From positions 10,718 through 74,717 of the IMG/VR virus record IMGVR_UViG_3300008267_000780: 64,000 bases of DNA; one strand, 5' to 3'. Shown here in pieces: positions 2,983 through 31,305 of the stretch; the stretch's first letter is position 1, and each line of letters starts with the position of its first letter. The notes under the pieces are model-generated. The model did not search any database and had not been told where the DNA came from. It worked only from the letters and a program-made list of their open reading frames with translations. The stretch comes from a virus. Made by a program: the position numbers and the translations under genes.

Positions 2983-2987
2983 TCTCT

Positions 2988-6019: not shown

Positions 6020-6024
6020 ATGAT

Positions 6025-7419: not shown

Positions 7420-7438
7420 ATAACAAAAAAATACGAAT

Positions 7439-12332: not shown

Positions 12333-12764
12333 ATGAAAAATATAACCACTATCCTACAGGAGAAAAATGTGAAAGTCGACACTTTGCCCGACAACATTCA
12401 AAGTGCAATTGAAAATTCAATGAACCTTTTCGAAGACATTCAAACTTTAGAAGACACGTTGACTGAAGAGTCTACAGATGAAGAAAAAGCAGAATTCAAC
12501 GAATTAAAGGAAACCCACGAAGATTTTAACGAACAGATTCTTGGGGCAATTGACAATTTTCAAGAAGAACTTGAAGCAAAGAAAAAAGCCCAAAATAATG
12601 CAAGTCCTGCGCCTGCGCCTGCGCCTGAACCAAAACCTGCAACACCTCCATCATCAAATCCCGAACCCAAAAAAAAAGGAATTGGATTTGGTACTTTCAT
12701 TATCGGAGCGGCAGTTTTGATTGTAACTGCAGGTGCTGTTAATATGATGAGAAATAAGAACTAA
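12333..12764 (+). CDS. tail-anchored membrane protein (acidic coil, PA linker, C-terminal TM)
   Basis: GIGFGTFIIGAAVLIVTAGAV hydrophobic C-terminus. Confidence 0.8.
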   Translation: MKNITTILQEKNVKVDTLPDNIQSAIENSMNLFEDIQTLEDTLTEESTDEEKAEFNELKETHEDFNEQILGAIDNFQEELEAKKKAQNNASPAPAPAPEPKPATPPSSNPEPKKKGIGFGTFIIGAAVLIVTAGAVNMMRNKN

Positions 12765-12973
12765 TGGAAAAAATACCCCAACACTATTTTGCGTTTAATC
12801 CACAGTCTGTCCGTTGGATGGATATGGTGTTTGTTGCACCTATTATGATTTATGCGGGTGTGAAGGGGGATTTTAAACCATATGTGAAATTTTCACTCAT
12901 CGCGATTGGCTCTTTGACTTTTCTTTACAACGGCATTAATTATGTAACCAATTTGCAAAACGGAGAAAAATGA
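12764..12973 (+). CDS. small 2-TM membrane protein
   Basis: two hydrophobic segments; TAATG coupling. Confidence 0.7.
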   Translation: MEKIPQHYFAFNPQSVRWMDMVFVAPIMIYAGVKGDFKPYVKFSLIAIGSLTFLYNGINYVTNLQNGEK

Positions 12974-13263
12974 GTTACCGTATTACAAGATACACTTTTG
13001 AACAGGCTAAAAAATTGGGGGTGACTGTAAAGCCGTCCACAGTTCAAGGCAAAAAGATTGATGTATTCAAGAACGGAACGAAATTGGCCTCAGTTGGTGC
13101 TATAGGGTACAATGATTATCCAACATTTATGCGATTGGAGCGCGAGGGAAAGGTTCCTTCAGGAACAGCGAATTTGCGTCGGAAAGCATATAAAATCAGA
13201 CATCAAAAAGACAGAACCGTCCGTGGAAGTAATGGATGGTACGCTGACAAATTATTATGGTAA
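12970..13263 (+). CDS. Tlr6F/DUF5754-like basic protein
   Basis: KKIDVF..VGAIGYNDYP..RRKAYKIRH..GWYADKLLW pattern. Confidence 0.65.
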   Translation: MSYRITRYTFEQAKKLGVTVKPSTVQGKKIDVFKNGTKLASVGAIGYNDYPTFMRLEREGKVPSGTANLRRKAYKIRHQKDRTVRGSNGWYADKLLW

Positions 13264-13415
13264 TGGACAAGAAATTAAAAGTAGTAATCGTGGCCTCAGT
13301 AGGTATTGCTGCAATATTGATTGGAGTGTCTTTGCTCTTTATTCAAAGGGGTATTGACCGAAAAGCAATTACAGAAGAAGACCGAAATGTTTTAAGACAA
13401 ATTCGAATTTCATAA
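13263..13415 (+). CDS. 50-aa membrane protein (not in the ORF track)
   Basis: MDKKLKVVIVASVGIAAILIGVSLLFIQRG...; TAATG coupling. Confidence 0.7.
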   Translation: MDKKLKVVIVASVGIAAILIGVSLLFIQRGIDRKAITEEDRNVLRQIRIS

Positions 13416-13417
13416 TT

Positions 13418-14143
13418 ATGGAAATCAAGATACCTGCAATTCAAAAGGAGTGGAAAGTCCCTGCAAATCAACCACCTTGGAAAAGTCAAGCAACGGCTGT
13501 GATAAAAAAAATCAAGGCGAATTATAGTGGGCAAATGGCAAAAGCATCGCAATACACAGGGGTTCCTGTGAATATTTTGGTAGCGTTTGCCGCCACAGAA
13601 AGTGGAGGCGCGTTGAATCAAACTTTAAATGGTCCATCCAAAGGAATTATGCAAGTAAACCCTTCTTCGGCTTGGCAAGCACTATCTGACCAAATCAAAG
13701 TCGATACGATAGGTAGATTCTACCCCCTTTACCAATTGGCCCCTAATGCATTCGTGGTGAAAAAACCCGTTGCTACAAACTCAGTAGGAAAGGCTACGGA
13801 TTATTTGACCTTGAAACCTGTAACTACAGCGTCCGCATATCTTGGGCAAAGAATGGTCGCTGATGCGCAATTTGCTATTTATATGGGTTCGTTGTTATTG
13901 GCACAGTTAATAGCGGGTACAATCGCTAAAACAGGCCAAATCAGACTTGACCACATCATCATTAAATACAATGCGGGTACGGGACGATTCAGGCAGGTGG
14001 TAACGAGCAGAGGTTTGGAAAGCGCGAGTGTGGACACAACACAGTTGTATAATCAGTTACCAATTCCTGTTTCTCAAGCGTACATCGTCAAAATGATGGG
14101 AATAAATGGCTATTTAGATGTTCAAAAACAGGGTTTGGCGTAA
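13418..14143 (+). CDS. lytic transglycosylase (SLT-like), probably virion-associated
   Basis: AATESGG catalytic Glu, GIMQV, YNAG motifs. Confidence 0.8.
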   Translation: MEIKIPAIQKEWKVPANQPPWKSQATAVIKKIKANYSGQMAKASQYTGVPVNILVAFAATESGGALNQTLNGPSKGIMQVNPSSAWQALSDQIKVDTIGRFYPLYQLAPNAFVVKKPVATNSVGKATDYLTLKPVTTASAYLGQRMVADAQFAIYMGSLLLAQLIAGTIAKTGQIRLDHIIIKYNAGTGRFRQVVTSRGLESASVDTTQLYNQLPIPVSQAYIVKMMGINGYLDVQKQGLA

Positions 14144-14179
14144 ATAATATGACGGCATTGAACTGTAGAAAAAACTCAC

Positions 14180-14187
14180 TATTTTTG
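14180..14187 (+). promoter_or_regulatory. Bacteroidota -7 promoter element TATTTTTG
   Basis: matches TAnnTTTG in an intergenic gap before a gene run. Confidence 0.55.
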
Positions 14188-14213
14188 TTTTAATCAATTA
14201 ACTACATAATACT

Positions 14214-14333
14214 ATGGCAAATACTAAATCAGGATTCGTACCAATGGCTGTTGGGATTGCATTGTCTCTTGCAACAATTTATGTTATCGCATACTTTGCA
14301 GGCAAGGGATGGGAGAAAGCAACCGATAAGTAA
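14214..14333 (+). CDS. 39-aa membrane protein (not in the ORF track)
   Basis: MANTKSGFVPMAVGIALSLATIYVIAYFAGKGWEKATDK. Confidence 0.7.
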   Translation: MANTKSGFVPMAVGIALSLATIYVIAYFAGKGWEKATDK

Positions 14334-14335
14334 TT

Positions 14336-14830
14336 GTGAAAGGAATTTTCAAAGAAATATTGGATGCGACCCAAGGTCCGCACGCAAATGGAGTTCTCTA
14401 CGCAGGGGCTGTAGGACTTTTATTGTCCAATATTATTCCAACCCCCGCAGATGCTTTATATTTCCATCGTGAGAAAAAACTCAAGGAGAAATGGGACAAT
14501 AAAGAAATCACACCCGAAAAATATTGGCAAAAAACTGCAACCGCCTATTACGTGTATAAACCCGTATGGTGGGGACTTGTAATTAGTGCAATGTATTTTA
14601 CCAAAGGCGATGTCAAGGACAAAGCGAAGATAGGTTTGATGATTGTAGGAGCAGGAGCCGTAGTAGGGATAGTTTACAGAAATTACACAAAAGACATTCA
14701 AGATGTTCGTCGAGAAGTTTTGACTTCTATGGAGCCAAAGAAAAACATTACAGGTCCAAATAAGCCTGTGAAAGTTGGTCAATACAGGTCAGTTCTTCGA
14801 AAAGGAAACGTCTTAAAGTTTGTCGCTTAA
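14336..14830 (+). CDS. multi-TM membrane protein
   Basis: GTG start; three hydrophobic segments. Confidence 0.75.
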   Translation: MKGIFKEILDATQGPHANGVLYAGAVGLLLSNIIPTPADALYFHREKKLKEKWDNKEITPEKYWQKTATAYYVYKPVWWGLVISAMYFTKGDVKDKAKIGLMIVGAGAVVGIVYRNYTKDIQDVRREVLTSMEPKKNITGPNKPVKVGQYRSVLRKGNVLKFVA

Positions 14831-14840
14831 TAAAAAAGAA

Positions 14841-15194
14841 ATGGAAAATTTAACAGGAGCACCCGCAGCAGCCGCAGCACCCGCTGCCCCCGCAGCCCCC
14901 GCTGCACCCGCAGCACCTGCAGCACCCGTAATGGCGCAAGGTGGTAGTGTAGCAGATGCCGCACCGAAAATGGTAGAGGGTGGCGACGTTTCATCAATAG
15001 AAACCAATTGGGGAACTTGGATTGCAATTGGCTTGGTGTCACTTACGCTTGTTTCATTGATTTTACAGATTGCTGTACATCGCAAAAATTTAAAGAAAGT
15101 CGATGCAGACGATGAAGCATTGCAAAAAGATGTCAGGGAACTGAAAATGAATGTGAAAAAACAAATGGGCGAAAAGTATGAAACCTTGGCTTGA
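14841..15194 (+). CDS. membrane protein with (AAP)n linker and MAQGG/MVEGG motifs
   Basis: ATG at 14841; TM WIAIGLVSLTLVSLILQIAV. Confidence 0.75.
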   Translation: MENLTGAPAAAAAPAAPAAPAAPAAPAAPVMAQGGSVADAAPKMVEGGDVSSIETNWGTWIAIGLVSLTLVSLILQIAVHRKNLKKVDADDEALQKDVRELKMNVKKQMGEKYETLA

Positions 15195-15825
15195 CGAAGT
15201 CACGTATGGCAACCCAAATGATGAATTACTTCCCTATTTAGAAAAAGGGGAGTTTGATTTCGTATTCGAAGCACTCAAAAAATTCCCACCGCCTAAAAAT
15301 TCTTCGGAAACTACGCGGGATGAAATGAGAGAACTTATTTCGATTCAGAACTCTCCTGAGCAAAAAAACGAAGAAATTATGTCACGGTATTTGAACTATG
15401 ACAAAAATTTCGGAGATGTATTCAAAACTTATTGCAAAGACACAATAGGGGAAAATATGGATGACGTAATCGACCAAATTACAAAAGATGGTTTTTACGT
15501 CCTGACAAAATTAAAATTCTTTTACCAAAGGCCGCGTCCCTATCAGTTGGCACAATATTTAAGGGCGCGTCTTTTTCCTTATGCTGCAGCCACCGCTTTG
15601 ACACCTGCATATCCTTCAGGACACTCGTTTGAGTCATATGCTTTGGCAGAATATATTGGAAGTAAGTATCCCGAACATTATCAGTTTTTGACTGATTTAT
15701 CACACGATATATCAATTAGTCGATTATTTCTTGGATTGCATTTTGCCACTGATTTAGATTTTGGCAGATTTGCGGCTAAGAAATATGTAGGCTCAAAGCA
15801 ATTTGCAAGTAAATATGGAATATGA
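15178..15825 (+). CDS. PAP2/haloperoxidase-superfamily phosphatase
   Basis: KFFYQRPRP, YPSGHS and SRLFLGLHFATD motifs 1-3. Confidence 0.85.
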   Translation: MKPWLDEVTYGNPNDELLPYLEKGEFDFVFEALKKFPPPKNSSETTRDEMRELISIQNSPEQKNEEIMSRYLNYDKNFGDVFKTYCKDTIGENMDDVIDQITKDGFYVLTKLKFFYQRPRPYQLAQYLRARLFPYAAATALTPAYPSGHSFESYALAEYIGSKYPEHYQFLTDLSHDISISRLFLGLHFATDLDFGRFAAKKYVGSKQFASKYGI

Positions 15826-16228
15826 ATTTCTCGTAACACCAATCGGCAAGCCGAGAATGACCCAACGGGACAAGTGGTTAAATCCACCCCGTAAACCAAT
15901 ATTGAATTACAGAATTGCAAAACACGGTATTCAACATTATGCCTGTGAACAAAATTTTACTTTGCCCGAAATAATTAATGTTATTTTTGTTTTACCTGTT
16001 TCAGAATCTTGGAGCAATAAGAAAAAAACATCAATGATTGGGCAGCCACATCGCCAAAAACCCGATTTGGATAATATCCTCAAATTTTTGATGGATAGCC
16101 TTCTCCCAAACGGAGGTGATGAAGTTGTGCATACCATAAACGCCCGTAAAATTTGGGGTGAACACGGTAAAATATTAATTGAAACAAAAAATGACTCGAC
16201 AACGGAAAATCGAAACGAAGCCAATTGA
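15815..16228 (+). CDS. rusA: RusA-like Holliday junction resolvase
   Basis: PIGKPRMT and KPDLDNILKFLMDSL..DE motifs. Confidence 0.8.
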   Translation: MEYEFLVTPIGKPRMTQRDKWLNPPRKPILNYRIAKHGIQHYACEQNFTLPEIINVIFVLPVSESWSNKKKTSMIGQPHRQKPDLDNILKFLMDSLLPNGGDEVVHTINARKIWGEHGKILIETKNDSTTENRNEAN

Positions 16229-16625
16229 ACAATTATTCTCGGCATTGAGTGAGACGCTCAATGAAATTGGGTATATGCGAACCATTCACCTACTGAGAAA
16301 AGGTCAAGAAAACGTATGGAATTCAGACTTGAAAGTTGCTACTGATGCAGTTTGCAAGGTATTTAATATTTCTCCCGATGTGGTATTTGGTAAATCAAGA
16401 AAATATCCCCGAAAATATGCTTTCGCTATTTGGGTTTATTTATCGTACACCAAATTAAATTACACGCTCCCCGATTTAGTGAACTATACCCATAAGTCTT
16501 TGTCGACAATCAGCAAGGCTAAAGGCAGTATCGATAATCGAAAAAGCGTCACCGCATTTGAAAAGAAAATTAACGAAAAACTTGATGAATGCATACAAAT
16601 CATAAATGAAATCAAACCCGAATAA
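16191..16625 (+). CDS. DnaA domain-IV-like HTH protein
   Basis: VCKVFNISPDVVFGKSR..AIWVYL..TLPDL..HKSLSTI pattern. Confidence 0.6.
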   Translation: MTRQRKIETKPIEQLFSALSETLNEIGYMRTIHLLRKGQENVWNSDLKVATDAVCKVFNISPDVVFGKSRKYPRKYAFAIWVYLSYTKLNYTLPDLVNYTHKSLSTISKAKGSIDNRKSVTAFEKKINEKLDECIQIINEIKPE

Positions 16626-16627
16626 TT

Positions 16628-17602
16628 ATGGAAAATACAGAAAATGTGAATTCAGAAATCATTGATGATTTCTCCCCGCTTACTCAGGACAATGTAATCC
16701 AACGTGATTATACAAAACCAAATGTTGACTTCTCTCAAGTCAATGCAACCCCTATTGAAGAACCTGTATTCGTAGCCCCCTCTTTTGAGGATATGGATGC
16801 TAATTGGAATTCCAAAAATGTCGAAGAAGCACAAATTGTAGATGAAAAAGCAAGTGCTAATCCATATACAGAAAATCTTGACAAGAAAGACCAAAGAAAA
16901 GCATCAGCCGCATTGGTTGAAGCCCTTTTGGATGGATACACTCAATTGAACAAATTTGGGAATAAACTCGTTCAATTCAATCCTGAAAAAATACAGGGAA
17001 TGATGCGCTCAGGGGAAATAGACCCTGATTTGACCATTCCAATTAACGGTAGAAATATCGGAGTTCTTGATTATGTGAATGCATACAATGAAGAAACTTC
17101 CTCAGTTATTTCCGTTGATGATGACTTCAAAGACAAGGTACGTCCATTGTTAATTGAAGAGTTTATGGAGCGCAACATCGGGATGACCCGATTGCAATTG
17201 ATTGGATATTATTTTGGAACTGATTTATTGACTAAGGGAACCTTGGTTTATTCATTGAGGAAACAGAATCAAGCAGTATTGGATTCTTTGGTGGAAATTA
17301 GTCAAAATAACCGTCCCGCTCCAACACCTCAGGCAAGTCGTGTGCAACAGTCAGAACCAATTAGAGAAGAGGAACCTGTGAGAAAATCACAACGTGAATT
17401 CGTAGAGCCTGAAGAGGAATACGCAGTTGTCGAAGAGTTTGAACCCGTGACGGTAGTAAAAACTGCCAATGACGATGTTAGTCGCTCAAGAAGACCACAG
17501 GCAGGACCTAAGTTTGGTGACTCTGCAATTTTGGAGCAAATGGAACAAATCGCAAATGGTGAGCCTTCAGGTAAGCGTAGAGGTAGACCAAGGAAAAAAT
17601 AA
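16628..17602 (+). CDS. acidic hypothetical protein preceding the packaging ATPase
   Basis: 324-aa ORF; C-terminal KRRGRPRKK (AT-hook-like). Confidence 0.75.
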   Translation: MENTENVNSEIIDDFSPLTQDNVIQRDYTKPNVDFSQVNATPIEEPVFVAPSFEDMDANWNSKNVEEAQIVDEKASANPYTENLDKKDQRKASAALVEALLDGYTQLNKFGNKLVQFNPEKIQGMMRSGEIDPDLTIPINGRNIGVLDYVNAYNEETSSVISVDDDFKDKVRPLLIEEFMERNIGMTRLQLIGYYFGTDLLTKGTLVYSLRKQNQAVLDSLVEISQNNRPAPTPQASRVQQSEPIREEEPVRKSQREFVEPEEEYAVVEEFEPVTVVKTANDDVSRSRRPQAGPKFGDSAILEQMEQIANGEPSGKRRGRPRKK

Positions 17603-17610
17603 TATCAAAT

Positions 17611-18432
17611 ATGAGAGAACCATTATTGGGCGTAGCCGTCGGAAAGAAAGGTGTAGGTAAAACCTTTACGACCAATAGGGTCATAAAACAATATGTGATG
17701 GGTAATCCCGCTTCGGGAATTATGCCAAGAAAAGTTTTGATTTTAGATGCAAACGATGAATATACTGAGTACAAAGCGATTGCATTAAAAGATTTGATGT
17801 TGTTTAGTGTGCACCCTATGGTAGAAGCAAGAAGAATTAGGCCAATTCACGCGGATGGTAAAAAAATGACCTTGGACGATTTGGCAACCACTTTGAATTA
17901 CATTTTGGAAGTTTTTTCGGGTGGACTTTTATTGATTGAGGATATTAATCGTTTCACTTCTGATTTTATGCCTCAAGATTTGATGGGAGCAATTGCAACA
18001 AATCGACATCGTGATTTGGATATCATTTTGCACTATCAAGGAATAGGTCGTATTGGAACAAAAGTGTGGCAAAACATAAATTGGCTCAGGATGCATAAAA
18101 TTACTGAGTCAGCGATGCGACACGCGAAGAAGTTTGAAGACAAATATGAAATAATCCGCATATGCGAATTAATGGTCAATACACAATTCTTTGCAGGTAA
18201 CGAAAGGTACTATCAATATATTGATTGTGAGAATATGTGCTTTCAAGGTAAGGTAGATGAAAAGTTGTTTGCAGAAGCCTGTAAATTGTTTATTGAAGAG
18301 AATTATCGTAGAATTATTTCGCCTCTTTTACAAATTCGTGGAGTGGGTGACAAAAAGAAATTCACGGCTGATACTGCAATGAAGTCAGAAATGGAAAGAT
18401 TAAGGAAAATGTACTTGAAAAAACAATTGTAA
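17611..18432 (+). CDS. A32/FtsK-HerA-type genome packaging ATPase
   Basis: N-terminal Walker A GKKGVGKT, ILDANDEY, Walker B LLLIED, NRH..IILHYQ arginine-finger/Gln motif; small single-domain size. Confidence 0.75.
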   Translation: MREPLLGVAVGKKGVGKTFTTNRVIKQYVMGNPASGIMPRKVLILDANDEYTEYKAIALKDLMLFSVHPMVEARRIRPIHADGKKMTLDDLATTLNYILEVFSGGLLLIEDINRFTSDFMPQDLMGAIATNRHRDLDIILHYQGIGRIGTKVWQNINWLRMHKITESAMRHAKKFEDKYEIIRICELMVNTQFFAGNERYYQYIDCENMCFQGKVDEKLFAEACKLFIEENYRRIISPLLQIRGVGDKKKFTADTAMKSEMERLRKMYLKKQL

Positions 18433-18465
18433 GTTACTTTAAGTCTACTATGTAATCAATAAGCG

Positions 18466-18492
18466 AACCCCCTTTAAAACAGGGGGTTTTTT
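18466..18492 (+). terminator. rho-independent terminator
   Basis: aaccccct/agggggtt stem followed by a T-run. Confidence 0.8.
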
Positions 18493-18570
18493 ATTTTAAA
18501 TACTTGTAAATTACTATGCAAAATATATTTTAGGGAATACTTAATAGTTAATAGTCCATTTTATCCAAGG

Positions 18571-18578
18571 TATTTTTG
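18571..18578 (+). promoter_or_regulatory. Bacteroidota -7 promoter TATTTTTG for the capsid unit
   Basis: TAnnTTTG after the terminator, upstream of 18619/18773. Confidence 0.6.
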
Positions 18579-18618
18579 AAACTGTAAGCAGTCTGAACGG
18601 CTTATCAAACAAAAACTT

Positions 18619-18732
18619 ATGAACGTAGAATCTTTAAAAAAAATCGGAGGACAAGTCCTTTTAATTGTAGTCGGTGTATTAATTGCTAATGAAGTTCAAA
18701 AGCAAATTGACAAACGACGCGCAGCAATGTAA
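18619..18732 (+). CDS. 37-aa membrane protein co-transcribed with the MCP candidate (not in the ORF track)
   Basis: MNVESLKKIGGQVLLIVVGVLIANEVQKQIDKRRAAM; A-rich leader. Confidence 0.7.
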   Translation: MNVESLKKIGGQVLLIVVGVLIANEVQKQIDKRRAAM

Positions 18733-18772
18733 ATTCACAAAAACCAAAAACCTTAAAAAAAAAACTTAGACT

Positions 18773-19471
18773 ATGAGTAATATCCGTAAATACCTTGCTG
18801 ACGCACAGAATCGTGCTCACGAGGGCTTCTTGAATGCCGATGGCTTCTTTGATGACGATTTGAACTTCACCGCAGGTGATGATTTTATGTCTGCTAATGG
18901 CGACCCTATGCCTGCAGCGGCTCCAACCTCTCAGCCTTACATCATCCAAATTGCAAACACAGGTAGTGCTGTTTCCAATTTCAGTGTGTTGGGTTCATAC
19001 GAACAGTTGAGTGATACGGCAGCGTTCACTTCAGGTTCGTACACTTCAGGAAACGTGACGATTTCGTCTGCTATTCCTAACGTGACTTACCAACAGATGC
19101 TTTACCAATTTATGAACAACCCGTTCAGCATTGGTTTGACTTACATTCAGTCAGCATCAAGCACTCAGTTGTTGGAAACAATCAGCGTACAAACACGTGA
19201 CGCGAATGGTAACTTGGCACAAAAGCCATTGGTGCCAACCGTGGACCCATATCAGTTTCAGACTACAGTCCTTGCTCTCCGCTTCGGATACAGAATCGAT
19301 GGTTACACCAAATTGATTTTGAACCAAGTGTTAGCATCGACCACTGTGAAATTGTACTTGTACCCTGCAGACAACATCAATTTGGCTCGTGGATTGTCAG
19401 GTCGCGCTGTATCAAAAGATTTCAGCAGCCCAGGCATTGTGCGTGCTCAAACCGTGAAAATTCAGGGTTAA
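18773..19471 (+). CDS. candidate major capsid protein (single jelly-roll-like) with acidic N-terminal leader
   Basis: beta-strand-rich 232 aa; follows the packaging ATPase; own promoter and terminator; TTC/TAC/AAC codon preference suggests high expression; paralogues at 49961-50772. Confidence 0.65.
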   Translation: MSNIRKYLADAQNRAHEGFLNADGFFDDDLNFTAGDDFMSANGDPMPAAAPTSQPYIIQIANTGSAVSNFSVLGSYEQLSDTAAFTSGSYTSGNVTISSAIPNVTYQQMLYQFMNNPFSIGLTYIQSASSTQLLETISVQTRDANGNLAQKPLVPTVDPYQFQTTVLALRFGYRIDGYTKLILNQVLASTTVKLYLYPADNINLARGLSGRAVSKDFSSPGIVRAQTVKIQG

Positions 19472-19493
19472 TCCCTCTTTTGCGATTGAATAG

Positions 19494-19531
19494 AAAAGGG
19501 GCGAAGGCAAACAGCCTCGCCCCTTTTTTTT
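19494..19531 (+). terminator. rho-independent terminator after the MCP candidate
   Basis: aaaaggggcga...tcgccccttttttt. Confidence 0.85.
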
Positions 19532-19554
19532 AATACTCACAAACACAAATATTT

Positions 19555-19725
19555 ATGGCCTACAAAGTCAAATTGGGTAACAAGGATTACTTCACAGAAG
19601 AATTTTCTTCTGAGACGGAAGCAAAAAGAGCAAAGTATCACGCCATCATTGGCGCGAAAACTTTTCGTAGTGCATCAAAATCGATGGACACGAAAATTGT
19701 AAAAGTTGTAAAAAAGAAAAAATAA
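19555..19725 (+). CDS. 56-aa basic protein (not in the ORF track)
   Basis: MAYKVKLGNKDYFTEEF...KKKK; TAATG coupling. Confidence 0.65.
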   Translation: MAYKVKLGNKDYFTEEFSSETEAKRAKYHAIIGAKTFRSASKSMDTKIVKVVKKKK

Positions 19726-20108
19726 TGACAATCTACGAGTATATCGCGCGAAATAATCCCACAGGTGCTAAAAGGGTGATTGAATCTTTTGGTTATGTGG
19801 TGACACAACCTAAAAAAATGGGCGATAACCTTCGTATGTTGGTAGCGCAGGAAGGAGAGCCCGCATTAAAAGCGGTGGTAGACTTACACCCTGATAAAGA
19901 CTTGATTTTGGAAGTTTTCGGAAACAGTCAGGGCGTTAAAGGAACAGGAGATAATTTCTTTGGAGCCGACGGCCTACTTCAAAGCGCAGTTTTGAATAAC
20001 AACCAACAGCAAAATGATAGCAACAATAAAATGGTGCTTCAAACAAACACATTAATTGTGGCCTTATCACTCCTTGTAGTTGCAGGGTTAATATTAAAGA
20101 ATCGATGA
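19725..20108 (+). CDS. tail-anchored virion membrane protein
   Basis: C-terminal TM; NFFGADG motif. Confidence 0.75.
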   Translation: MTIYEYIARNNPTGAKRVIESFGYVVTQPKKMGDNLRMLVAQEGEPALKAVVDLHPDKDLILEVFGNSQGVKGTGDNFFGADGLLQSAVLNNNQQQNDSNNKMVLQTNTLIVALSLLVVAGLILKNR

Positions 20109-20647
20109 AAAATTTGAAACCTAACGAAATTTACGCTGTATCAGCGATGACCATCGACAACAATACTGAAGGGGTAAAAACTCTGATTACAAAGTATGGT
20201 GTCATTTTGCCAAAAAATGCAAGTCGCGCAGATGTTGACAAAGCATTTGCGGCACTTTTAAGAAAGAGCAAATCGTTTAGAAATGATTTTGCTTTATTGG
20301 CTGCGAATGAAAGTCAAAAGAGCGATAACTTCTCCAATTTTATGGAATTTTTAGGTATGTCAGGCAGAGGTATTGGAACCACAAGTGCTCCTTTAAAAAC
20401 TCCTGACCCAATTCCTGTGAAGACAAGTTTGCCGAACACAACTGCTAAAAAACCAAGTGCATTTGCTGAAGCGTTTGATGCTGATACAATCAGAAATGTC
20501 ATCAATACAGGATTGAATATTTGGGCTACCCGCTCAGGTACGACAGCCGCAACTACAAATGATTTACAATCAGGTAGGGATTCATTGAATCTACAACCTC
20601 AAAATGAATCTACACGGGGTATCGGTACTACAGGAATCATCAGTTAA
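20105..20647 (+). CDS. putative virion protein; C-terminal TM apparently missing
   Basis: 180 aa; FSNFMEFLGMSG motif; ends abruptly at GIGTTGIIS. Confidence 0.7.
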   Translation: MKNLKPNEIYAVSAMTIDNNTEGVKTLITKYGVILPKNASRADVDKAFAALLRKSKSFRNDFALLAANESQKSDNFSNFMEFLGMSGRGIGTTSAPLKTPDPIPVKTSLPNTTAKKPSAFAEAFDADTIRNVINTGLNIWATRSGTTAATTNDLQSGRDSLNLQPQNESTRGIGTTGIIS

Positions 20648-20653
20648 AAAGTA

Positions 20654-20878
20654 ATGGCAAACGAATTTCAAGACGCTTTAGACAATGTAAAAGAACTGAG
20701 TGGACAATCTACTCACGATACCTTTTTGAAGCAAAGCAAACGCATTATGAAGGGCAGTGCTACGGGTCTTGTAGTTGGTTTGATGTACGGATGGTACACT
20801 AAGAAAAATATTTATGTCACTGCGATACTTGGTGTAATTGCAGGAGGTGCAGTTAACTACTTTATTTTTTCAGAATAA
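20654..20878 (+). CDS. 2-TM membrane protein
   Basis: two Gly-rich hydrophobic segments. Confidence 0.75.
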   Translation: MANEFQDALDNVKELSGQSTHDTFLKQSKRIMKGSATGLVVGLMYGWYTKKNIYVTAILGVIAGGAVNYFIFSE

Positions 20879-20879
20879 T

Positions 20880-21299
20880 ATGACCTTGGATTCAGCAATA
20901 AAATATAAAGATTTTTCAAACCCAAGCATAGTGTTGGCAAGGCCCATCAATATCCAATCGGGTGCGGATGGTAGTCTATCGGTGAGCGGTCCTAAAGGAG
21001 CGGTACAATTAAAATTGACCAAACCGTTAACCATAACAAATGCTCAAGGGAAAAATGAAATCATAGAAAAAGGTGGTATTGTTTGGGGAATGCCATTGCA
21101 ATCAATAGCCGCGAACAATTCTTATTTGTATGAAACACAAGGAAGGGTTTATGTTTTAACGGTTGGTGTCAATGCTGAATTATACAATCCATCGTCAAGC
21201 CCAAGAAAGGGTGAAGAATCGAAAAAAGGTTTTCCTGTTTCCGTAATAGGATTGGGTTTAATTGCAATCGTGATAATTTATACAATAAACAAGTTATGA
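20880..21299 (+). CDS. tail-anchored membrane protein
   Basis: ATG at 20880; C-terminal TM. Confidence 0.7.
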   Translation: MTLDSAIKYKDFSNPSIVLARPINIQSGADGSLSVSGPKGAVQLKLTKPLTITNAQGKNEIIEKGGIVWGMPLQSIAANNSYLYETQGRVYVLTVGVNAELYNPSSSPRKGEESKKGFPVSVIGLGLIAIVIIYTINKL

Positions 21300-21397
21300 A
21301 AATTGCTGATGATAAAAAGAAAAAAGGTGGTGCATTGATGCTTGTAGGCTTTGCCTTACTCGCTTATGTTGTTTATAAAATAATCGAAAGTAAATGA
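21296..21397 (+). CDS. 33-aa membrane protein (not in the ORF track)
   Basis: MKIADDKKKKGGALMLVGFALLAYVVYKIIESK; ATGA overlaps on both sides. Confidence 0.65.
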   Translation: MKIADDKKKKGGALMLVGFALLAYVVYKIIESK

Positions 21398-21618
21398 AAA
21401 AAGAATATATTGAAGCCCTTGTTTTGATTGGAGCCATCGGTTTTGCTATTTATTTGGCAAGTCCCAAAGACTCCGTATTGAAGAGTGCAAAAGCGAATTC
21501 GCCAAATCCCACAGGACCTAAAGGGGGATTTGAGAATTTCACTGCAGACGAATTAACTTATGACGACCATTTGTATGGAAATGCAGATGGAGGATTAAAA
21601 GGTTTAACACTTAAATAA
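21394..21618 (+). CDS. membrane protein with FENFTAD/YGNADG motifs
   Basis: N-terminal TM. Confidence 0.75.
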   Translation: MKKEYIEALVLIGAIGFAIYLASPKDSVLKSAKANSPNPTGPKGGFENFTADELTYDDHLYGNADGGLKGLTLK

Positions 21619-21626
21619 ATAAAACT

Positions 21627-21716
21627 ATGACAAAAAACACTAAAACAATCTTGACTGTAGCCGTAGTTGCTACCGTTTTGTTCTTCGTTTTCAAGAAGCC
21701 TAAAACTGACGCTTAA
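21627..21716 (+). CDS. 29-aa membrane protein (not in the ORF track)
   Basis: MTKNTKTILTVAVVATVLFFVFKKPKTDA; aaaact leader. Confidence 0.6.
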   Translation: MTKNTKTILTVAVVATVLFFVFKKPKTDA

Positions 21717-21727
21717 TTTTCATCAAA

Positions 21728-22210
21728 ATGAATCGTGATGTATTATTGGGCGCGGGGGTCGTTTTGGCCTTTATCGTCCTTGTAAGCAGAGCCAAGAAAA
21801 ACCAAGTTTCCGAACCTTCAGGTGGCGGTGGTGGAGGTGGTATGGGCGGTCCTTTCGTTGCAGGAATACCTGCAGGACCTTTGACCGTGAATACTATTGT
21901 TCAACCCGCACGTCCCGCGAACCAAGGTCAAGTAATTACAACCTTGGGCACAAAAGACACTACTCCAACTGCAGCGGTTACAAGTTCTACTCAAGCCAAA
22001 GCAATTGATACTGCGACTAACACGGGTGGAATTATTCCTATAGGTCAAGGTGGAAGTTCTACTCCCACTTACAGCACAGGAACTGTTACTCAAGCGGATT
22101 TAAAGTCAGGTGTTGCAGGTAACACGGTTTTCAAGCCTTTCAGCGGAGCATCAATTGATGCAAAATTCTTGGGATTTGTAGGTTCAAGGCCTAAATTTGA
22201 ATTCAATTAA
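21728..22210 (+). CDS. membrane-anchored Gly/Thr-rich protein
   Basis: N-terminal TM; low-complexity body. Confidence 0.75.
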   Translation: MNRDVLLGAGVVLAFIVLVSRAKKNQVSEPSGGGGGGGMGGPFVAGIPAGPLTVNTIVQPARPANQGQVITTLGTKDTTPTAAVTSSTQAKAIDTATNTGGIIPIGQGGSSTPTYSTGTVTQADLKSGVAGNTVFKPFSGASIDAKFLGFVGSRPKFEFN

Positions 22211-22211
22211 T

Positions 22212-22493
22212 ATGTTGTCAGCAAATAAACTATACAAAGATTCAGGAACCACTTTGTCGTTCAAAGAATGGTTGGAGCGTGAAAAGGCAAAAGGCAAATT
22301 TATTCCTAACGTGCAAGCGATGGAAGAATTTGTAAATGCCGATGGTGGTGTTTCAGAGCAAGCCTCTGAAAAATCTCAAATCACAGCCAAATCAGTCGAG
22401 AACAAACAACTGTTTACTTCCGTGGCTCGAGTCGGTTTAATTGTTGTATTGGCATATTTCGTTTATCGAACTATCAAAAGTGAAGTTAAATAA
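22212..22493 (+). CDS. tail-anchored membrane protein with FVNADG motif
   Basis: ATG at 22212; C-terminal TM. Confidence 0.75.
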   Translation: MLSANKLYKDSGTTLSFKEWLEREKAKGKFIPNVQAMEEFVNADGGVSEQASEKSQITAKSVENKQLFTSVARVGLIVVLAYFVYRTIKSEVK

Positions 22494-22704
22494 CACTCAA
22501 ATAAAGCGCATACTGATTGCAGGGGGATTTTTCTTCCTGCTTTTGCGTTTTCGGGGATATTTAAATCCCGCGAAAGAAACTTTGTCTGCTAAAGACGAAT
22601 CTTTATCAGCGAGTGGTACGAAAACCGTTATTGATAGGGCGATTGACAAAATTAGAAGTGGCGGGGTAAAAGTTGCAAGCACTCCATCTGAAATAACAAA
22701 CTGA
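22480..22704 (+). CDS. membrane protein
   Basis: GTG at 22480; TM ILIAGGFFFLLL. Confidence 0.65.
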   Translation: MKLNNTQIKRILIAGGFFFLLLRFRGYLNPAKETLSAKDESLSASGTKTVIDRAIDKIRSGGVKVASTPSEITN

Positions 22705-23486
22705 TGAAAGAAGAAAGAATTGCTACCAAATATGCTCCCGTTACGCTTTGTGTGGTTTTGAAAACAGAGTTCCCTACCAAACTCAATTTGGTAGTGTTCG
22801 ATGCAAAAAACCCCAAAAGGAAATTCACTGAGCGTTACAAAACTGTTACAGGCGAAGAAACCCTGTATGTTCGAATGCCGTTGTCTCCTGATAACGCTGT
22901 CGTTCAAGTTTTTTCGCACGGTGGAATTGCAAAAAAGAATGACCCAAACTTCAGTATTGTAAGGGTTTACAAAAAAGGTTTGGAGCGTCGGTTTGATTTG
23001 AATGATATTGGGAATCCCCAAATACGCTCATTCGTCAAATTCGCGCAGAAATTTTGTTTTAATGTGAGTGAGTTGGAGCCCGAAGAAACTTATCGAAGTG
23101 ATGACGGTGAATACTTTATTCAGTTGAAGCAACAGATAAAAGATGCAAACGGAAAAGTGTTGGGTACGCCCGCACGTATTGGCCGTAGAACAGGTGTTAT
23201 TCAAGTGAGTAAAACCCAATTTGAGGCCTTTACAATTCCTATGCGTATGGCAATTTTGCTACACGAATTTTCCCATTTTTACTTGAATGAAAAAATGGAT
23301 GATGAAATGGAGGCAGACTTAAATGGATTGTTGATTTACCTTGGTCTTGGATATCCAAGAATTGAGGCTTATCAAGCGTTCCTCGAAACATTCAAAAATG
23401 CACCAAGCAATTTGAATAAGAAACGCTACGATATGATTAATAACTTCATCAACAATTTTGAGAAAATGGACATTGTAATAAAATAA
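22704..23486 (+). CDS. zincin metalloprotease (HExxH), candidate virion maturation protease
   Basis: AILLHEFSHFY followed by EMEAD third-ligand motif. Confidence 0.7.
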   Translation: MKEERIATKYAPVTLCVVLKTEFPTKLNLVVFDAKNPKRKFTERYKTVTGEETLYVRMPLSPDNAVVQVFSHGGIAKKNDPNFSIVRVYKKGLERRFDLNDIGNPQIRSFVKFAQKFCFNVSELEPEETYRSDDGEYFIQLKQQIKDANGKVLGTPARIGRRTGVIQVSKTQFEAFTIPMRMAILLHEFSHFYLNEKMDDEMEADLNGLLIYLGLGYPRIEAYQAFLETFKNAPSNLNKKRYDMINNFINNFEKMDIVIK

Positions 23487-23488
23487 AG

Positions 23489-23908
23489 ATGGCAGTTACA
23501 AATTGGAACACAGCACCTGATTACGATGAATGGGGCCCCGATAAGTCTTGGGGTTGTGAAGATTGGATACAATGGCACAAATTGCTCAAATTAAAATTTG
23601 GCGCAGTTAAAGCCAACTATATTTGGAATTATGCATATGCCCAAGGAACACAGGGAGCGTCCCATTGGAGTTGCAGGACAACAAATACTATGTTCCGAAA
23701 TTATGTGGCAAAGGAAGGTTTGAATCCATATGAAAGTGCGGGTGCATTTGCGCCTATTTTGAATGTTATTGGTGGCGCGGGCGATGTAGTCAGTGGCACG
23801 GGTGATTTACTGTCAGATATTGGTAAGAATTTAAAAATCATCGGGTACATCGCAATTTTGGGTGTAGCCGTGTATGTGGGAATAACCGTTTATAAGAAGA
23901 CAAAGTGA
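23489..23908 (+). CDS. tail-anchored membrane protein
   Basis: Trp-rich N-domain, C-terminal TM. Confidence 0.75.
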   Translation: MAVTNWNTAPDYDEWGPDKSWGCEDWIQWHKLLKLKFGAVKANYIWNYAYAQGTQGASHWSCRTTNTMFRNYVAKEGLNPYESAGAFAPILNVIGGAGDVVSGTGDLLSDIGKNLKIIGYIAILGVAVYVGITVYKKTK

Positions 23909-24066
23909 TGAAAAAGGAAATATTGTATGCGGGTGGTATTTTGGTTGCTTTGGGAGCGATTTATTTCATTGTGAAGCAATATAAAAAGAATCAAGATGGG
24001 TCAGCCGCGTTGGATGACAAGGAAATCGTTGATTTATTGAAAAAAATTGATTCGGCAAAAAAATGA
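23908..24066 (+). CDS. 52-aa membrane protein (not in the ORF track)
   Basis: MKKEILYAGGILVALGAIYFIVK...; coupled at both ends. Confidence 0.7.
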   Translation: MKKEILYAGGILVALGAIYFIVKQYKKNQDGSAALDDKEIVDLLKKIDSAKK

Positions 24067-24593
24067 GTACGGAAAAAGGATTAAAATATGGGTTTTTCTT
24101 TATCGCAGGGGTTGCAGTAATTCTTGGTGTTGTTCTATTGGGTAAAAAGAAGCCCGATGACGATGACGAAAATCCAAATCCTGAGCCTACACCAATGGAC
24201 CCTGTAATTGACCCTGTTCAAGCATCAGTTCCGCAAAATCTTGCAACTATTCTTGCAAGCAAGGACCCTATTGTAGCATTGAAGGGTAGGAAGATTTATG
24301 CAAAAGTTGCCAATGCAAAAGGTAGGAAAACCCCATATGTAAATGACGGTATGGTAAACAACCTTGCATTCGAATCACTGAACGGTGAGTATCTTGGGTA
24401 TCCTACAAGAGTCGGTAACGATTTAAATGGTGCTAAAGATGCATCAGGAAAAGTTTACAAGTGGATTAGAGTTACACTCGACACGAAATCGTGGAATAGG
24501 TATAACGATACCAAATCATTTTTGACCAAACAAACTTTTATGAATAACGGAAATAACTTTGCGTGGTTCAGGGAGGACGTAATTAAATTATAA
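24063..24593 (+). CDS. membrane-anchored protein, possible SH3b-like domain
   Basis: N-terminal TM, PEP linker, KWIRV...AWFREDVI. Confidence 0.6.
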   Translation: MSTEKGLKYGFFFIAGVAVILGVVLLGKKKPDDDDENPNPEPTPMDPVIDPVQASVPQNLATILASKDPIVALKGRKIYAKVANAKGRKTPYVNDGMVNNLAFESLNGEYLGYPTRVGNDLNGAKDASGKVYKWIRVTLDTKSWNRYNDTKSFLTKQTFMNNGNNFAWFREDVIKL

Positions 24594-25141
24594 TGAAAAA
24601 GCAAGCAATTGATAAAAATTTGAAATACGGGCTGTACGTTTTGTCGGCCCTTATTGGTGGTTTTGCAGTCGTAAAAATTGTAAAAGCAATTAAGGATAAT
24701 GCAGATAAAGGCGATGATGAAAACAAACCTGAGCCTGAGATTAAAACAGTTTATGTAGACACATACCTGTCAAAGTTGCCTTTAGGGGTGGATAATTTGA
24801 CTTGGGGCTCTAAAGTACCCGCTAAGTATTTGCCAACTTTTAATGCAAGCACAGCCGCGAGTACAGATGCAACATACAAAGCGAATGCAATACGCGTTCA
24901 AACTTTGTTAAATCAAAGACTTGCCGCTTTGGGAGGTGGATATCCTAAATTGGTAACAGATGGTATCATAGGTGGTGAAACAACAAAAGCAATGATTGTA
25001 GTTGCAAAGCAGTATGACAAAATGAATTTGTTGCCTTTAACCAAAAAAGAAGACATTAATAATTGGCTGACCTTTTTCAATGTAAAAACAATATCAGGAG
25101 ATTCCTCACAAACAGGTGAGTTTCCTTTTTTCAAAAAATAA
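24593..25141 (+). CDS. membrane-anchored protein with peptidoglycan-binding (PG_binding_1-like) domain
   Basis: N-terminal TM; RVQTLLN..LVTDGIIGGETTKAM. Confidence 0.65.
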   Translation: MKKQAIDKNLKYGLYVLSALIGGFAVVKIVKAIKDNADKGDDENKPEPEIKTVYVDTYLSKLPLGVDNLTWGSKVPAKYLPTFNASTAASTDATYKANAIRVQTLLNQRLAALGGGYPKLVTDGIIGGETTKAMIVVAKQYDKMNLLPLTKKEDINNWLTFFNVKTISGDSSQTGEFPFFKK

Positions 25142-25153
25142 GACGACAAGAAT

Positions 25154-25714
25154 ATGGACATAGATTCTTTTTTCACAGATGGCGACCTAAGTTTCGGAAT
25201 GGACGGTTCAAGCCCTAATTTCAAAAACCTTACAGGAACAGGTCAAAATGTTTCTCGCGGTCCCAAATATGGCGAGTATGAATTCAATAAGAACCCTGAA
25301 TATGGGTTTACTGATGATATTTATTCAAACGCTACGGGTACTTCAAGATTAAATCAACCTACGGAATGGTACGTTACCAAGTTGTCTGATGCAGACAAAA
25401 AAGACTGTAACAAATTACAGGGTGTAATGGATAATATCTCCAAGGATATTGATACCAACAATAAAAAAATGGCCACTGCAAAACGCGGTGAAAGAAGGGT
25501 TCTTGAAGAATATAACAAGGGTTTGGAATTGGCAGGTAAAAAAGTCTTGGAATTGATGAATGCGGCTAATTGCACCGTCATTCAGCAGGCAGAATTTAAT
25601 AAAGCGTTGGGTGTAGCGGGTTCCCCATCAAAATCATCAAAGGTGATTTTGTATGTTGGCATTGGCGTTGCTGCATTGGCTCTTGGAGTGGTACTTTACA
25701 AAAAATTTAAGTAA
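25154..25714 (+). CDS. tail-anchored coiled-coil virion protein
   Basis: FGMDG, FKNLTG, YSNATG motifs; C-terminal TM. Confidence 0.75.
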   Translation: MDIDSFFTDGDLSFGMDGSSPNFKNLTGTGQNVSRGPKYGEYEFNKNPEYGFTDDIYSNATGTSRLNQPTEWYVTKLSDADKKDCNKLQGVMDNISKDIDTNNKKMATAKRGERRVLEEYNKGLELAGKKVLELMNAANCTVIQQAEFNKALGVAGSPSKSSKVILYVGIGVAALALGVVLYKKFK

Positions 25715-26454
25715 TGAGAACAAACATCAGTAAACAGTTAGGATTGCCCGTTGCTCCCCCAAGAGCAAAAGCCCCATCTATAGAAAAACAGTTGGGTTTT
25801 GTGGCCGAATATGATAAGTCTTTGGATTCAAGCAACTTGAATTTCTTTGCGGAAAATGACAAGTATTTTAATGCTTCAGGAGAAACAAAGAACTTTAATG
25901 AGTACTATAAAGGGAGTGAAGCCTCAGTGCGCTCTGTATTAGAGGGCTTAAAAATAAACACGTCTGAAGACTTGGACTATCTTGAATCTGAGAAAAAAAG
26001 ATTTCAGGAAGGCAAGGCAACTTTAGAACGCGATATTAACGCCATCAAAATAAATCAAGCGCAAAAAGCATTTGGTACTCAAGCCTACACTCAGCGTGGA
26101 AAATATGTTTCTCAATTATGGTCCGTAGATAAAACAATCGAGGGAATTGACAAAAGAATTGCTGATGTCAAGGTTATTTTGGAGAAAAAAGCCGCAAAAG
26201 CGAAGGCTGATGCAGAAGCCGCTGCAGCGAAAATGAAAGCAGAGGCTGAAGCCGCAAAGCAGGCAAAAATTGCCGCGTTGAAAAAGCAGATTGCTGATTC
26301 AAAAGACCCAAGTGTAAAAAAACAACTTACTGACGAACTCACAGGACTTTTGCAAGAAGGAACTGAAGGGCTTAAATCAAACAAAATTGTTTTGATTGGT
26401 GGAGCCGTGGTTGTAATCGGTGTTTTGTATTACTTTTTTAGGAGCAAGCAATAA
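25714..26454 (+). CDS. tail-anchored coiled-coil virion protein
   Basis: YFNASG motif; AK-rich coil; C-terminal TM. Confidence 0.75.
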   Translation: MRTNISKQLGLPVAPPRAKAPSIEKQLGFVAEYDKSLDSSNLNFFAENDKYFNASGETKNFNEYYKGSEASVRSVLEGLKINTSEDLDYLESEKKRFQEGKATLERDINAIKINQAQKAFGTQAYTQRGKYVSQLWSVDKTIEGIDKRIADVKVILEKKAAKAKADAEAAAAKMKAEAEAAKQAKIAALKKQIADSKDPSVKKQLTDELTGLLQEGTEGLKSNKIVLIGGAVVVIGVLYYFFRSKQ

Positions 26455-26456
26455 TT

Positions 26457-26753
26457 ATGTCAATTCAATATCAAGGTGCGGGATACGATTCATTCGATGA
26501 ATTTATGACTGAAACAGGATTGGATAAAGATAATTTTGTTGACGCTAAGAAGTCAGCAAATACCTTTGGAATTAAGTTCAAAGAAACTTTCACCACTGAA
26601 TTTAAAAACCAATTCACAGAGGCTCAAGACAGGGCAAAAAGATTGGATTCTAAGCCAAAGGTATTGAATCCTATTCCTAATAGCCTTTTGTATTTTGGAT
26701 TGGTAACAGCGGGTATTTATTTGGCATATTCATTTATTTTCAAATCAGAATGA
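26457..26753 (+). CDS. tail-anchored membrane protein
   Basis: C-terminal TM. Confidence 0.7.
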   Translation: MSIQYQGAGYDSFDEFMTETGLDKDNFVDAKKSANTFGIKFKETFTTEFKNQFTEAQDRAKRLDSKPKVLNPIPNSLLYFGLVTAGIYLAYSFIFKSE

Positions 26754-27262
26754 AGAAAAAACTATTAATTATTGGGGGTGCTACAATTGTAGCCGCAATC
26801 GCGTTAAGGACGCTGTATAAGAACTTGTATTTGGCAGGTCAGTGGGATTTCAATATGGGGAGTTTTGGCGTTAAGTCATTCAAGCCCCTTGTTATCACAC
26901 AAACAATTGACTTTATCAATAAAAGCAATTTGAAATTGACTGTTAAAAACATTAAAATAGGTGTTTACAGCAATAATATTAGAATCGGTCAAATTGATAG
27001 GGCAAATGAGCAAACGATTGGTCCAAAAGGTATTTCCAAGTTTACCTTGGAATATGCTTTGACACCCACGTTGGGGAATCAAGCCGCCAAGGATGCAATC
27101 ACTAAAGTTGCGTCAACGTATTTACAGACAAAAGACTTGCCTGTGGATTTCGTTGGGTCTCTTGACGTTAAAACACCTTTTGGATTTGTGACCGTTCCCG
27201 TGAGATATTCTTCAACGGGGAAAAATTTATACAAATTGTGGTATGAATATATGAACGGATAA
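26750..27262 (+). CDS. membrane-anchored LEA_2/WHy-like protein
   Basis: N-terminal TM; FINKSNLKLTVKNIKIGVYSNNIRIG..TIGPKGISKF beta-sandwich pattern. Confidence 0.6.
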   Translation: MKKKLLIIGGATIVAAIALRTLYKNLYLAGQWDFNMGSFGVKSFKPLVITQTIDFINKSNLKLTVKNIKIGVYSNNIRIGQIDRANEQTIGPKGISKFTLEYALTPTLGNQAAKDAITKVASTYLQTKDLPVDFVGSLDVKTPFGFVTVPVRYSSTGKNLYKLWYEYMNG

Positions 27263-31287: not shown

Positions 31288-31305
31288 ATTATTAAAATTA
31301 AATAT

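Follow-up and report, generated by a model that had tools for sequence, protein, structure and literature searches.

Predicted coat, packaging and membrane genes of a probable virion-assembly module in an uncultured dsDNA virus from fresh water

Among the tailless, membrane-containing double-stranded DNA (dsDNA) phages of bacteria used for comparison here, genome length ranges from 10 to 44 kb; large phage genomes are generally taken to be those of tailed phages. PRD1, PM2 and P23-77 share a gene order in which an ATPase gene is followed by a small membrane gene and the coat gene, and then by a series of genes for small membrane proteins together with a transglycosylase. Of the cultured tailless membrane phages compared, SSIP-1 has the largest genome; it is a membrane-containing tailless orphan phage that encodes two coat protein types (PMC6356626). 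Set beside these systems is a 64,000-nucleotide (nt) window that comprises bases 10718-74717 of a 74,717-bp IMG/VR virus record (IMGVR_UViG_3300008267_000780; record class linear), the left 10.7 kb of which lie outside the window and were annotated separately as locus L001. The evidence supports reading positions 12333-27262 of the window as a virion-assembly module, belonging to an uncultured dsDNA virus of fresh water, and we consider it probable that this virus is tailless and membrane-containing, with a shell built from a 232-amino-acid (aa) jelly-roll protein encoded in the module. From the module we infer that this protein is the major coat protein, that the membrane is internal, that the particle is tailless and icosahedral and that one product is a protease. 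Nearly all open reading frames (ORFs) of at least 100 aa in the 74.7-kb contig were scanned with Pfam or PHROGs, most of them with both; for ten core or large proteins scanned with NCBIfam, no family was found. A full-text literature search of incomplete coverage found no published description of the lineage.

The predicted packaging ATPase and the jelly-roll coat candidate

The gene at 17611-18432 (+) encodes a 273-aa protein that is filed, on its motifs and modelled structure, as an A32/B204-like genome-packaging ATPase of the FtsK-HerA superfamily, its packaging activity being predicted. The Walker A (GKKGVGKT) and Walker B (LLLIED) motifs are both invariant in 36 homologues. The AlphaFold model computed from the alignment of these homologues has a mean predicted local distance difference test (pLDDT) value of 89, and its best match by both structure-search methods is B204, the genome-packaging NTPase of Sulfolobus turreted icosahedral virus 2 (STIV2; Foldseek E 1.7e-10); B204 is the closest structure by 3 Z units, at 14-18% identity to the STIV and STIV2 proteins, and Zot, VirB4 and TrwB rank lower. 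Pfam matches to HerA/DUF87 and AAA_22 are weak, the former lying under its cut-off. By profile comparison (hhalign), the ATPase family aligns with the P23-77 packaging ATPase at a probability of 84% over 156 columns of a single-sequence template, and its alignment with PRD1 P9, PM2 P9 and SSIP-1 gp40 is limited to the P-loop. The preliminary description of this DNA, made from the letters alone, had proposed an A32/FtsK-type ATPase to be compared with A32, P9 and B204: the Walker motifs and the structural match agree with that assignment on the B204/A32 side, and the P9 proteins of PRD1 and PM2 align at the P-loop only. The ATPase gene ends 340 nt upstream of the coat candidate, a pairing that is retained in ~58 related loci; out of ~60 such loci, the ATPase is present in 60 and the coat candidate in 58.

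The coat candidate itself, at 18773-19471 (+), is a single jelly-roll protein of 232 aa, for which a major coat role is proposed on the basis of its model, fold searches, conservation, RNA contigs and predicted self-association. Its model, built from a 67-sequence alignment (pLDDT 86), shows one beta sandwich of ~12 strands, with residues 50-215 above a pLDDT of 90, preceded at residues 1-48 by a helix and a low-confidence acidic segment; this flexible leader carries the sequence FLNADG, of which A22, D23 and G24 are invariant in the family. The preliminary description had called the protein beta-rich and expected one eight-stranded jelly roll; one jelly-roll-type sandwich is indeed what the model contains, with ~12 strands in place of the eight. 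A Foldseek search of the PDB gives a best E of 2.7e-3, for the small subunit of cowpea mosaic virus (CPMV), with picornavirus capsid proteins, TNF and C1q domains and PRD1 P5 among the other matches. The fold searches thus return jelly-roll proteins at generic strength and single out no specific relative, and ESM Atlas look-ups (scores 0.82-0.86) gave no informative match.

At the level of sequence, the family is large: more than 1277 homologues were found among 90% clusters, on contigs of up to 132 kb, and they form 598 clusters at 50% identity. Searches of the PDB by sequence (phmmer and profile) with the ATPase and coat families returned P-loop or chance matches only, neither protein had a tblastn match in 50,697 phage records (the ATPase not even at E up to 1), and megablast of the region found none. 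The coat candidate, with a median identity of 61% in 58 related loci, surpasses all other genes of the module in conservation; over ~60 related loci, the corresponding figure is 52% for the ATPase and 35-40% for the PAP2, 324-aa and 127-aa proteins described below.

Coat-family genes also occur in more than one copy. A distant paralogue of 149 aa that shares a DPYQ motif is encoded at 49961-50410 (+) (hmmsearch E 4.9e-5 against the coat family; hhalign 46%) and is a candidate vertex protein. Clearer paralogues of ~157 aa occur in the relatives G001 and G003 (E 1.7e-10 and 2e-15), and locus L049 has two full-length copies side by side (9276-10702). In a 102-kb relative, an open frame of 406 aa encodes two complete core domains one after the other (L064 10001-11191, the same record as L043), and the genome also has the usual 232-aa gene and three shorter paralogues. 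From one genome to another, the number of paralogues ranges from 1 to 5. By analogy with viruses that have two coat proteins or double jelly-roll coats, these arrangements argue for a family that behaves like a capsomer family.

The coat candidate lies in a predicted short transcription unit of its own. An intrinsic terminator with a nine-pair GC-rich stem and a T run follows the ATPase gene at 18465-18489 (+), a TATTTTTG box of the Bacteroidota -7 type (TAnnTTTG) stands at 18571-18578 (+) as the putative promoter, and a second terminator, a GC hairpin followed by eight T, comes after the coat gene at ~19498-19531 (+). The preliminary description had placed the gene between a promoter and a terminator; terminators are found on both sides and the box upstream. 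The pattern TAnnTTTG is not enriched across the window (60 seen, 70 expected). A single-pass membrane ORF of 37 aa at 18620-18733 (+), read from the sequence and absent from the preliminary description, belongs to the same unit, and RNA contigs cover this ORF and the coat gene. Mismatch-free contigs of RNA libraries from four river metatranscriptome studies lie over the coat unit at 18595-19485 (892 nt), 18610-19456 and 18756-19456; the starts at 18595 and 18610 fall 17-32 nt past the TATTTTTG box, and the contigs end 13-42 nt before the terminator hairpin. This is a hint of a discrete, abundant coat-unit transcript; as assembled contigs, the RNA data do not lend themselves to a ranking of expression, either by depth or by the module parts that they leave uncovered (e.g. 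the ATPase gene).

Three copies of the coat core (residues 45-232) were predicted to form a complex with a score of 0.74, the best of three controls reaching 0.00; the score mark was attained by 20 of 30 proteins solved as one-chain pairs and by one of 23 solved as single chains, and the partner pLDDT is at least 68. The predicted contact is head to tail: face 1 consists of residues 75-82, 114-115, 142-148 and 176-178, face 2 of residues 54-56, 82-88 and 99-115, and the family-invariant residues P55, Y56, Q112, F113, D143, N145-N147, D176 and G177 lie within this interface. Among the named touching residues, the middle copy uses both faces and each outer copy one, residues not named being merely uncertain; because only the middle copy does so, the model softly suggests a ring larger than three copies rather than a closed TNF-like trimer.

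The module repeats the gene order given above for PRD1, PM2 and P23-77: ATPase, tiny membrane gene, coat candidate, then small membrane protein genes and a transglycosylase. Gene position, top conservation, the separate unit, the RNA contigs, the predicted self-association and the paralogues are the grounds for reading the 232-aa protein as the major coat protein. Alternatively, though we regard this as unlikely, the protein might be abundant in another role, as a vertex, spike, cement or fibre-head protein; the ATPase and membrane proteins would act as proposed, and the actual coat protein would be an unrecognised product encoded elsewhere. TNF, C1q, PRD1 P5 and fibre-head sandwiches do match the coat model about as well as capsid proteins; the contact predicted for the named residues is, however, an open head-to-tail chain and not a closed trimer. 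Likewise, one to five paralogues per genome are common for receptor-binding modules, whereas receptor-binding proteins are usually the most variable and this gene is the most conserved of its module, in the position of a coat gene directly after the ATPase. The genome does encode collagen-like fibres and several large proteins without assigned fold, but the conserved core offers no other capsid-size soluble protein, the 324-aa protein being acidic and of low complexity and the 260-aa protein carrying HExxH.

Predicted membrane, protease and fibre genes in and beyond the module

Around these two genes, a crude hydropathy scan finds one transmembrane helix in ~20 of the 35 plus-strand ORFs between 12333 and 29320, many of them C-terminal anchors; the scan missed the PAP2 protein and therefore undercounts membrane proteins. 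Gene starts and stops overlap or abut throughout the module. The preliminary description had spoken of more than 25 small transmembrane proteins in tight coupling, of which the tight packing and the single helices stand and the number becomes ~20 in an undercounting scan. It is these ~20 single-pass proteins, together with a core PAP2 gene, that give the module its membrane-related reading. The PAP2 lipid phosphatase is encoded at 15178-15825 (+) (Pfam PAP2 E 2.2e-9) and is a core gene of the lineage, present in 55 of ~60 related loci. Further core genes encode a tail-anchored membrane protein of 127 aa with a C-terminal transmembrane helix (19725-20108, +; 57 loci), a 74-aa membrane protein (20654-20878, +; 48 loci) and a 98-aa membrane protein with the sequence FVNADG (22197-22493, +; 49 loci). 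Nine tightly packed genes with one transmembrane helix each follow at 23489-27262 (+), as judged from hydropathy and Pfam scans.

Two kinds of cell-wall protein had been proposed for the module, a transglycosylase and peptidoglycan-binding proteins. An SLT-type lytic transglycosylase with one transmembrane helix at 13418-14143 (+) is above the Pfam cut-off (SLT E 5e-6, 26.5 bits against 21.3), and the PG_binding_3 match at 24593-25141 (+) is weak and under it. A LEA_2 protein was matched by Pfam at 26750-27262 (+); its gene and the PG_binding_3 gene both belong to the nine-gene run.

Two soluble core proteins complete the set. A 324-aa acidic, low-complexity protein with a basic GRP-type tail (16628-17602, +; 57 loci) matches no family and is a candidate scaffold or DNA-binding internal protein. 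The other, of 260 aa (22704-23486, +; 50 loci), is a zincin-like protein with HExxH (HEFSH...EMEAD) and no Pfam, PHROG or NCBIfam match; we treat it as a candidate maturation protease. The motif [FY]-x-N-[AVLIF]-x-G occurs at six sites in five module proteins, where 0.74 were expected and none of 500 shuffles reached six: 18827-18844, 21574-21591, 22329-22346, 25220-25237, 25322-25339 and 25864-25881. At three of these sites the sequence is x-N-A-D-G, and the flexible leader of the coat candidate contains one of the three. It is possible that the sites are cleavage or sorting signals for the HExxH protein, and the x-N-A-D-G sites and this protein together suggest proteolytic maturation.

Past the end of the module lie genes for putative fibres. 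A 293-aa collagen-repeat protein (27669-28550, +; Pfam Collagen E 2.8e-17) is a fibre or spike candidate, and a giant collagen-like (Gly-Ser/Thr-Ser) fibre protein of 4183 aa (35206-47757, +) ends in a C-terminal Peptidase_S74 chaperone domain (E 2.3e-16). The giant ORF consists mostly of Gly-Ser/Thr-Ser collagen-type triplets and all six of its frames are open; the length of such a repeat in a metagenome assembly may be unreliable. A collagen triple helix rises ~0.29 nm per residue, and a fibre of ~1 micrometre would result if the 4183-aa protein formed one. In the interval 27669-35213 (+), the gene for the 293-aa protein is followed, just ahead of the giant fibre gene, by three large fusions of glycosyltransferase and FkbM methyltransferase domains (656, 587 and 715 aa), an arrangement suggesting that the virus encodes its own enzymes for glycosylating and methylating the fibres. 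RNA cover over the collagen gene has joints and mismatches and probably derives from other organisms.

Taken as a scheme, these parts would work as follows. From its own short transcription unit, the 232-aa protein would be produced abundantly and would assemble head to tail into ring-shaped capsomers and thence into an icosahedral shell; this shell would form around a lipid vesicle in which the ~20 small single-pass membrane proteins are embedded. The B204/A32-type FtsK-HerA ATPase would then pump the genome into the preformed particle at a vertex, and the HExxH protease would trim leaders that carry the x-N-A-D-G motif; the SLT transglycosylase and the peptidoglycan-binding proteins may serve entry or exit, and the collagen-like fibres attachment.

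Tailed-phage hallmarks, genome form and host

A genome of this size raises the question of whether the virus could be a divergent tailed phage (Caudoviricetes), whose hallmark genes escape profiles, whose ATPase has another role and whose jelly-roll protein is a decoration or tail-fibre protein; we give this a small probability. In the Pfam and PHROGs scans, which covered nearly all ORFs of at least 100 aa in the 74.7-kb contig, families for terminase, portal, HK97 capsid, sheath, tube, baseplate and tape measure were all missing. This genome and four related records of 85-102 kb were also searched in six frames with Terminase_6N, TerL_ATPase, Phage_portal and Phage_capsid, and no match appeared at E up to 1, while control genomes responded; remote homologues with unrecognisable sequence could escape such searches. 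The absence of an HK97 coat protein, portal, terminase, sheath or tape measure, noted earlier for the window, extends in these scans to the left 10.7 kb, where no terminase-portal-HK97 module was detected; in the four relatives, terminase, portal and HK97 capsid likewise went undetected. PHROG matches annotated as tail fibre all fall on collagen or Gly-Ser repeats. Genome sizes of 75-130 kb, RecT, RusA, PDDEXK, a tRNA and collagen/S74 fibres are usual in tailed phages and six large proteins here lack an assignment, but the large terminase is normally the easiest hallmark to find and was not found by Pfam or by 38,880 PHROGs in the ORFs scanned. Divergent phage groups, such as the crAss-like phages at first, have hidden their structural genes from profile searches, which speaks for a tailed phage; against it, four hallmark families were null in five genomes with responding controls, and tailed phages are not known to pair a conserved B204-type ATPase gene with a neighbouring conserved jelly-roll gene and a cluster of genes for membrane proteins.

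The last alternative, a pleomorphic enveloped virus or vesicle-forming mobile element without icosahedral shell, in which the ATPase and membrane proteins drive budding or transfer, would account for the many membrane proteins, the lipid phosphatase and the lower-ranking matches to Zot, VirB4 and TrwB, but is very improbable given an ATPase that is closest to a capsid-packaging enzyme by the 3 Z units noted above and, at 273 aa, falls well short of the chain lengths of VirB4 (937 aa) and TrwB (420 aa), general family scans of the ORFs that found no relaxase or type IV secretion family, a conserved self-associating jelly-roll protein that would be left without a role, and genomes that stay under ~20 kb in the known pleomorphic prokaryotic viruses.

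Several observations weigh against a tailless membrane virus with a shell of the 232-aa protein, the reading that we prefer. In the complex prediction, one run out of three scored 0.00, and the runs disagree (contact agreement at least 0%). The coat proteins of P23-77, SH1 and HHIV-2 are not among the structural matches listed for the coat model, although absence from the list need not mean absence of similarity, and no sequence or profile link joins the candidate to known coat proteins (VP16 and VP17; PRD1, PM2, P23-77 and SSIP-1), the hhalign probability for VP16/VP17 being 1% or less. Collagen fibres with an S74 chaperone domain are commonest in tailed phages. A capsid, portal or terminase of unusual sequence could be hidden among the large proteins of the left arm, which range from 444 to 1255 aa, or in the core protein of 324 aa, none of which has an assigned fold. 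Finally, the lineage is known from genes and models. The lipid-containing jelly-roll phage of the preliminary description is nevertheless supported by sequence and predicted structure, the modelled fold being a jelly roll and no terminase-portal-HK97 module having appeared.

The left arm (window 239-12318, +; L001 8452-10959) encodes large proteins of 444, 556, 454, 464, 1255 and 835 aa without assigned fold, which carry weak winged-helix and LPD29-like signals and, in the 444-aa protein, a long Gly-Ser run; a MoxR-type AAA ATPase and a DUF2958-RelA/SpoT fusion are located among them. The set may represent injected or anti-defence proteins, and the arm could be the main place for hidden, unrecognised structural genes. 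Elsewhere, a replication and recombination set comprises RecT and a PDDEXK (DUF3799) nuclease (50889-53910, minus strand), a RusA Holliday-junction resolvase (15803-16228, +; Pfam RusA E 5e-13, PHROG 140 E 1.9e-16) and, by family match, a Phg_2220_C replication organiser (L001 3267-3917). General family scans of the contig turned up no polymerase, primase or helicase families, and family B DNA polymerase (PF03175, PF00136) had no match in five genomes. Other recognisable genes include several glycosyltransferases and FkbM methyltransferases, the MoxR-type and DUF2958-RelA/SpoT proteins of the left arm, a GDSL lipase, one tRNA-Met and the collagen-repeat proteins. The GC content is ~38%, apart from a stretch of ~11 kb (at roughly 37-48 kb), within a single giant repetitive ORF, where it rises to ~55%.

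CheckV estimates the record to be 89% complete, and a terminal repeat check found no direct or inverted terminal repeat of its own. The last ~100 bases of the window (63900-64000) match, at 92% identity, the reverse complement of a segment (positions 393-478) of L075, a related 84.7-kb record, which itself ends in an exact inverted copy of its own positions 440-489 (L075 393-489; L076 2951-3000); the cross-genome comparison makes this right end (63900-64000, no strand assigned) an inverted copy of the relative's left-end region, probably part of an inverted terminal repeat. In independently assembled relatives, the coat gene also sits at a near-constant distance from the contig ends. On these two sequence-based observations, the genome is probably linear with inverted terminal repeats. 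The comparison points to a record that lacks ~6 kb or more on the left and to a full genome of ~80-85 kb.

Almost the whole stretch is present in DNA runs from nine freshwater, lake and river studies, any of which may be its source; six river RNA libraries, from as many studies, contain one fifth to one third of it. The host may belong to the Bacteroidota. Leaders without Shine-Dalgarno sequences fit this phylum as weak evidence, and one 132-kb contig lies in a Sediminibacterium bin. The labels of metagenome-assembled genomes for contigs with the coat or ATPase gene (Sediminibacterium, Maribacter, Pelagibacter, Planktophila, Bathyarchaeia and Chlamydiales) were set aside as host evidence, since they name unrelated phyla and look like binning noise. 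Glycosyltransferase homologues carry no organism names, and a DNA search of 401 Bacteroidota genomes returned only tRNA-like matches and two short matches without surrounding CRISPR repeats.

Comparison with described viruses

If the proposed reading is right, the virion architecture of the tailless membrane phages extends to a new size class in bacteria, a sizeable group (the 598 coat clusters at 50% identity) has been overlooked in water-column viromes, and contigs that lack the marker genes used for phage classification find an explanation. Tentatively, and with more doubt than confidence, one may see here a new high-rank group of jelly-roll, membrane-containing bacterial viruses of 75-130 kb, widespread in water metagenomes, whose architecture carries genomes as large as those of big tailed phages and whose single, adjacent-paired or fused coat genes form a living series for the origin of the double jelly roll. 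Occurring in one family, the three coat forms would offer a direct route to studying how double jelly-roll capsid proteins arise.

Among described systems, the ATPase is closest to B204 of STIV and STIV2 (Turriviridae), the solved member of the A32-like FtsK-HerA branch. In comparison with STIV2 B204, the protein has ~60 extra C-terminal helical residues, and it has no sequence-level match in the PDB. STIV is an archaeal virus according to PDB titles. It has a genome of ~17 kb and a coat protein of the double jelly-roll type.

The module would work in the manner of those of PRD1, PM2, P23-77 and STIV-type viruses. From PRD1 (Tectiviridae) and PM2 (Corticoviridae) the virus differs in that its coat candidate has one jelly-roll domain and not two, a fused two-domain paralogue being found only in a relative, and the genome is 5-8 times the size of either. 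Unlike the Tectiviridae, it has no family B DNA polymerase that could be found, while inverted terminal repeats are hinted at. The one-domain coat candidate and the missing polymerase place the virus outside the double jelly-roll group. The ATPase and coat profiles match none of the ORFs of PRD1, PM2, P23-77 or SSIP-1.

SSIP-1 resembles the present virus in having a giant structural protein gene (gp43, about 7 kb). It differs in its circular genome of 43.8 kb, about half the size of the one described here, and in its hypersaline habitat; hhalign comparisons with its ORF29, ORF38 and gp40 gave nothing or the P-loop only.

P23-77 and the other Halopanivirales have single jelly-roll coats and an internal membrane. 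The virus described here, known from genes and models, has a coat candidate modelled as one jelly-roll domain, the gene order of P23-77 (ATPase, small gene, coat gene, small membrane protein genes) and a predicted packaging ATPase related to that of P23-77 (the hhalign match given above), and in one relative, L049, two coat-family genes stand side by side as they do in that order. In contrast to the adjacent small and large pair of the Halopanivirales, the virus itself has one full-length coat gene and a 149-aa paralogue 30 kb away, and its genome of ~80 kb is probably linear, compared with the 17-kb circle of P23-77.

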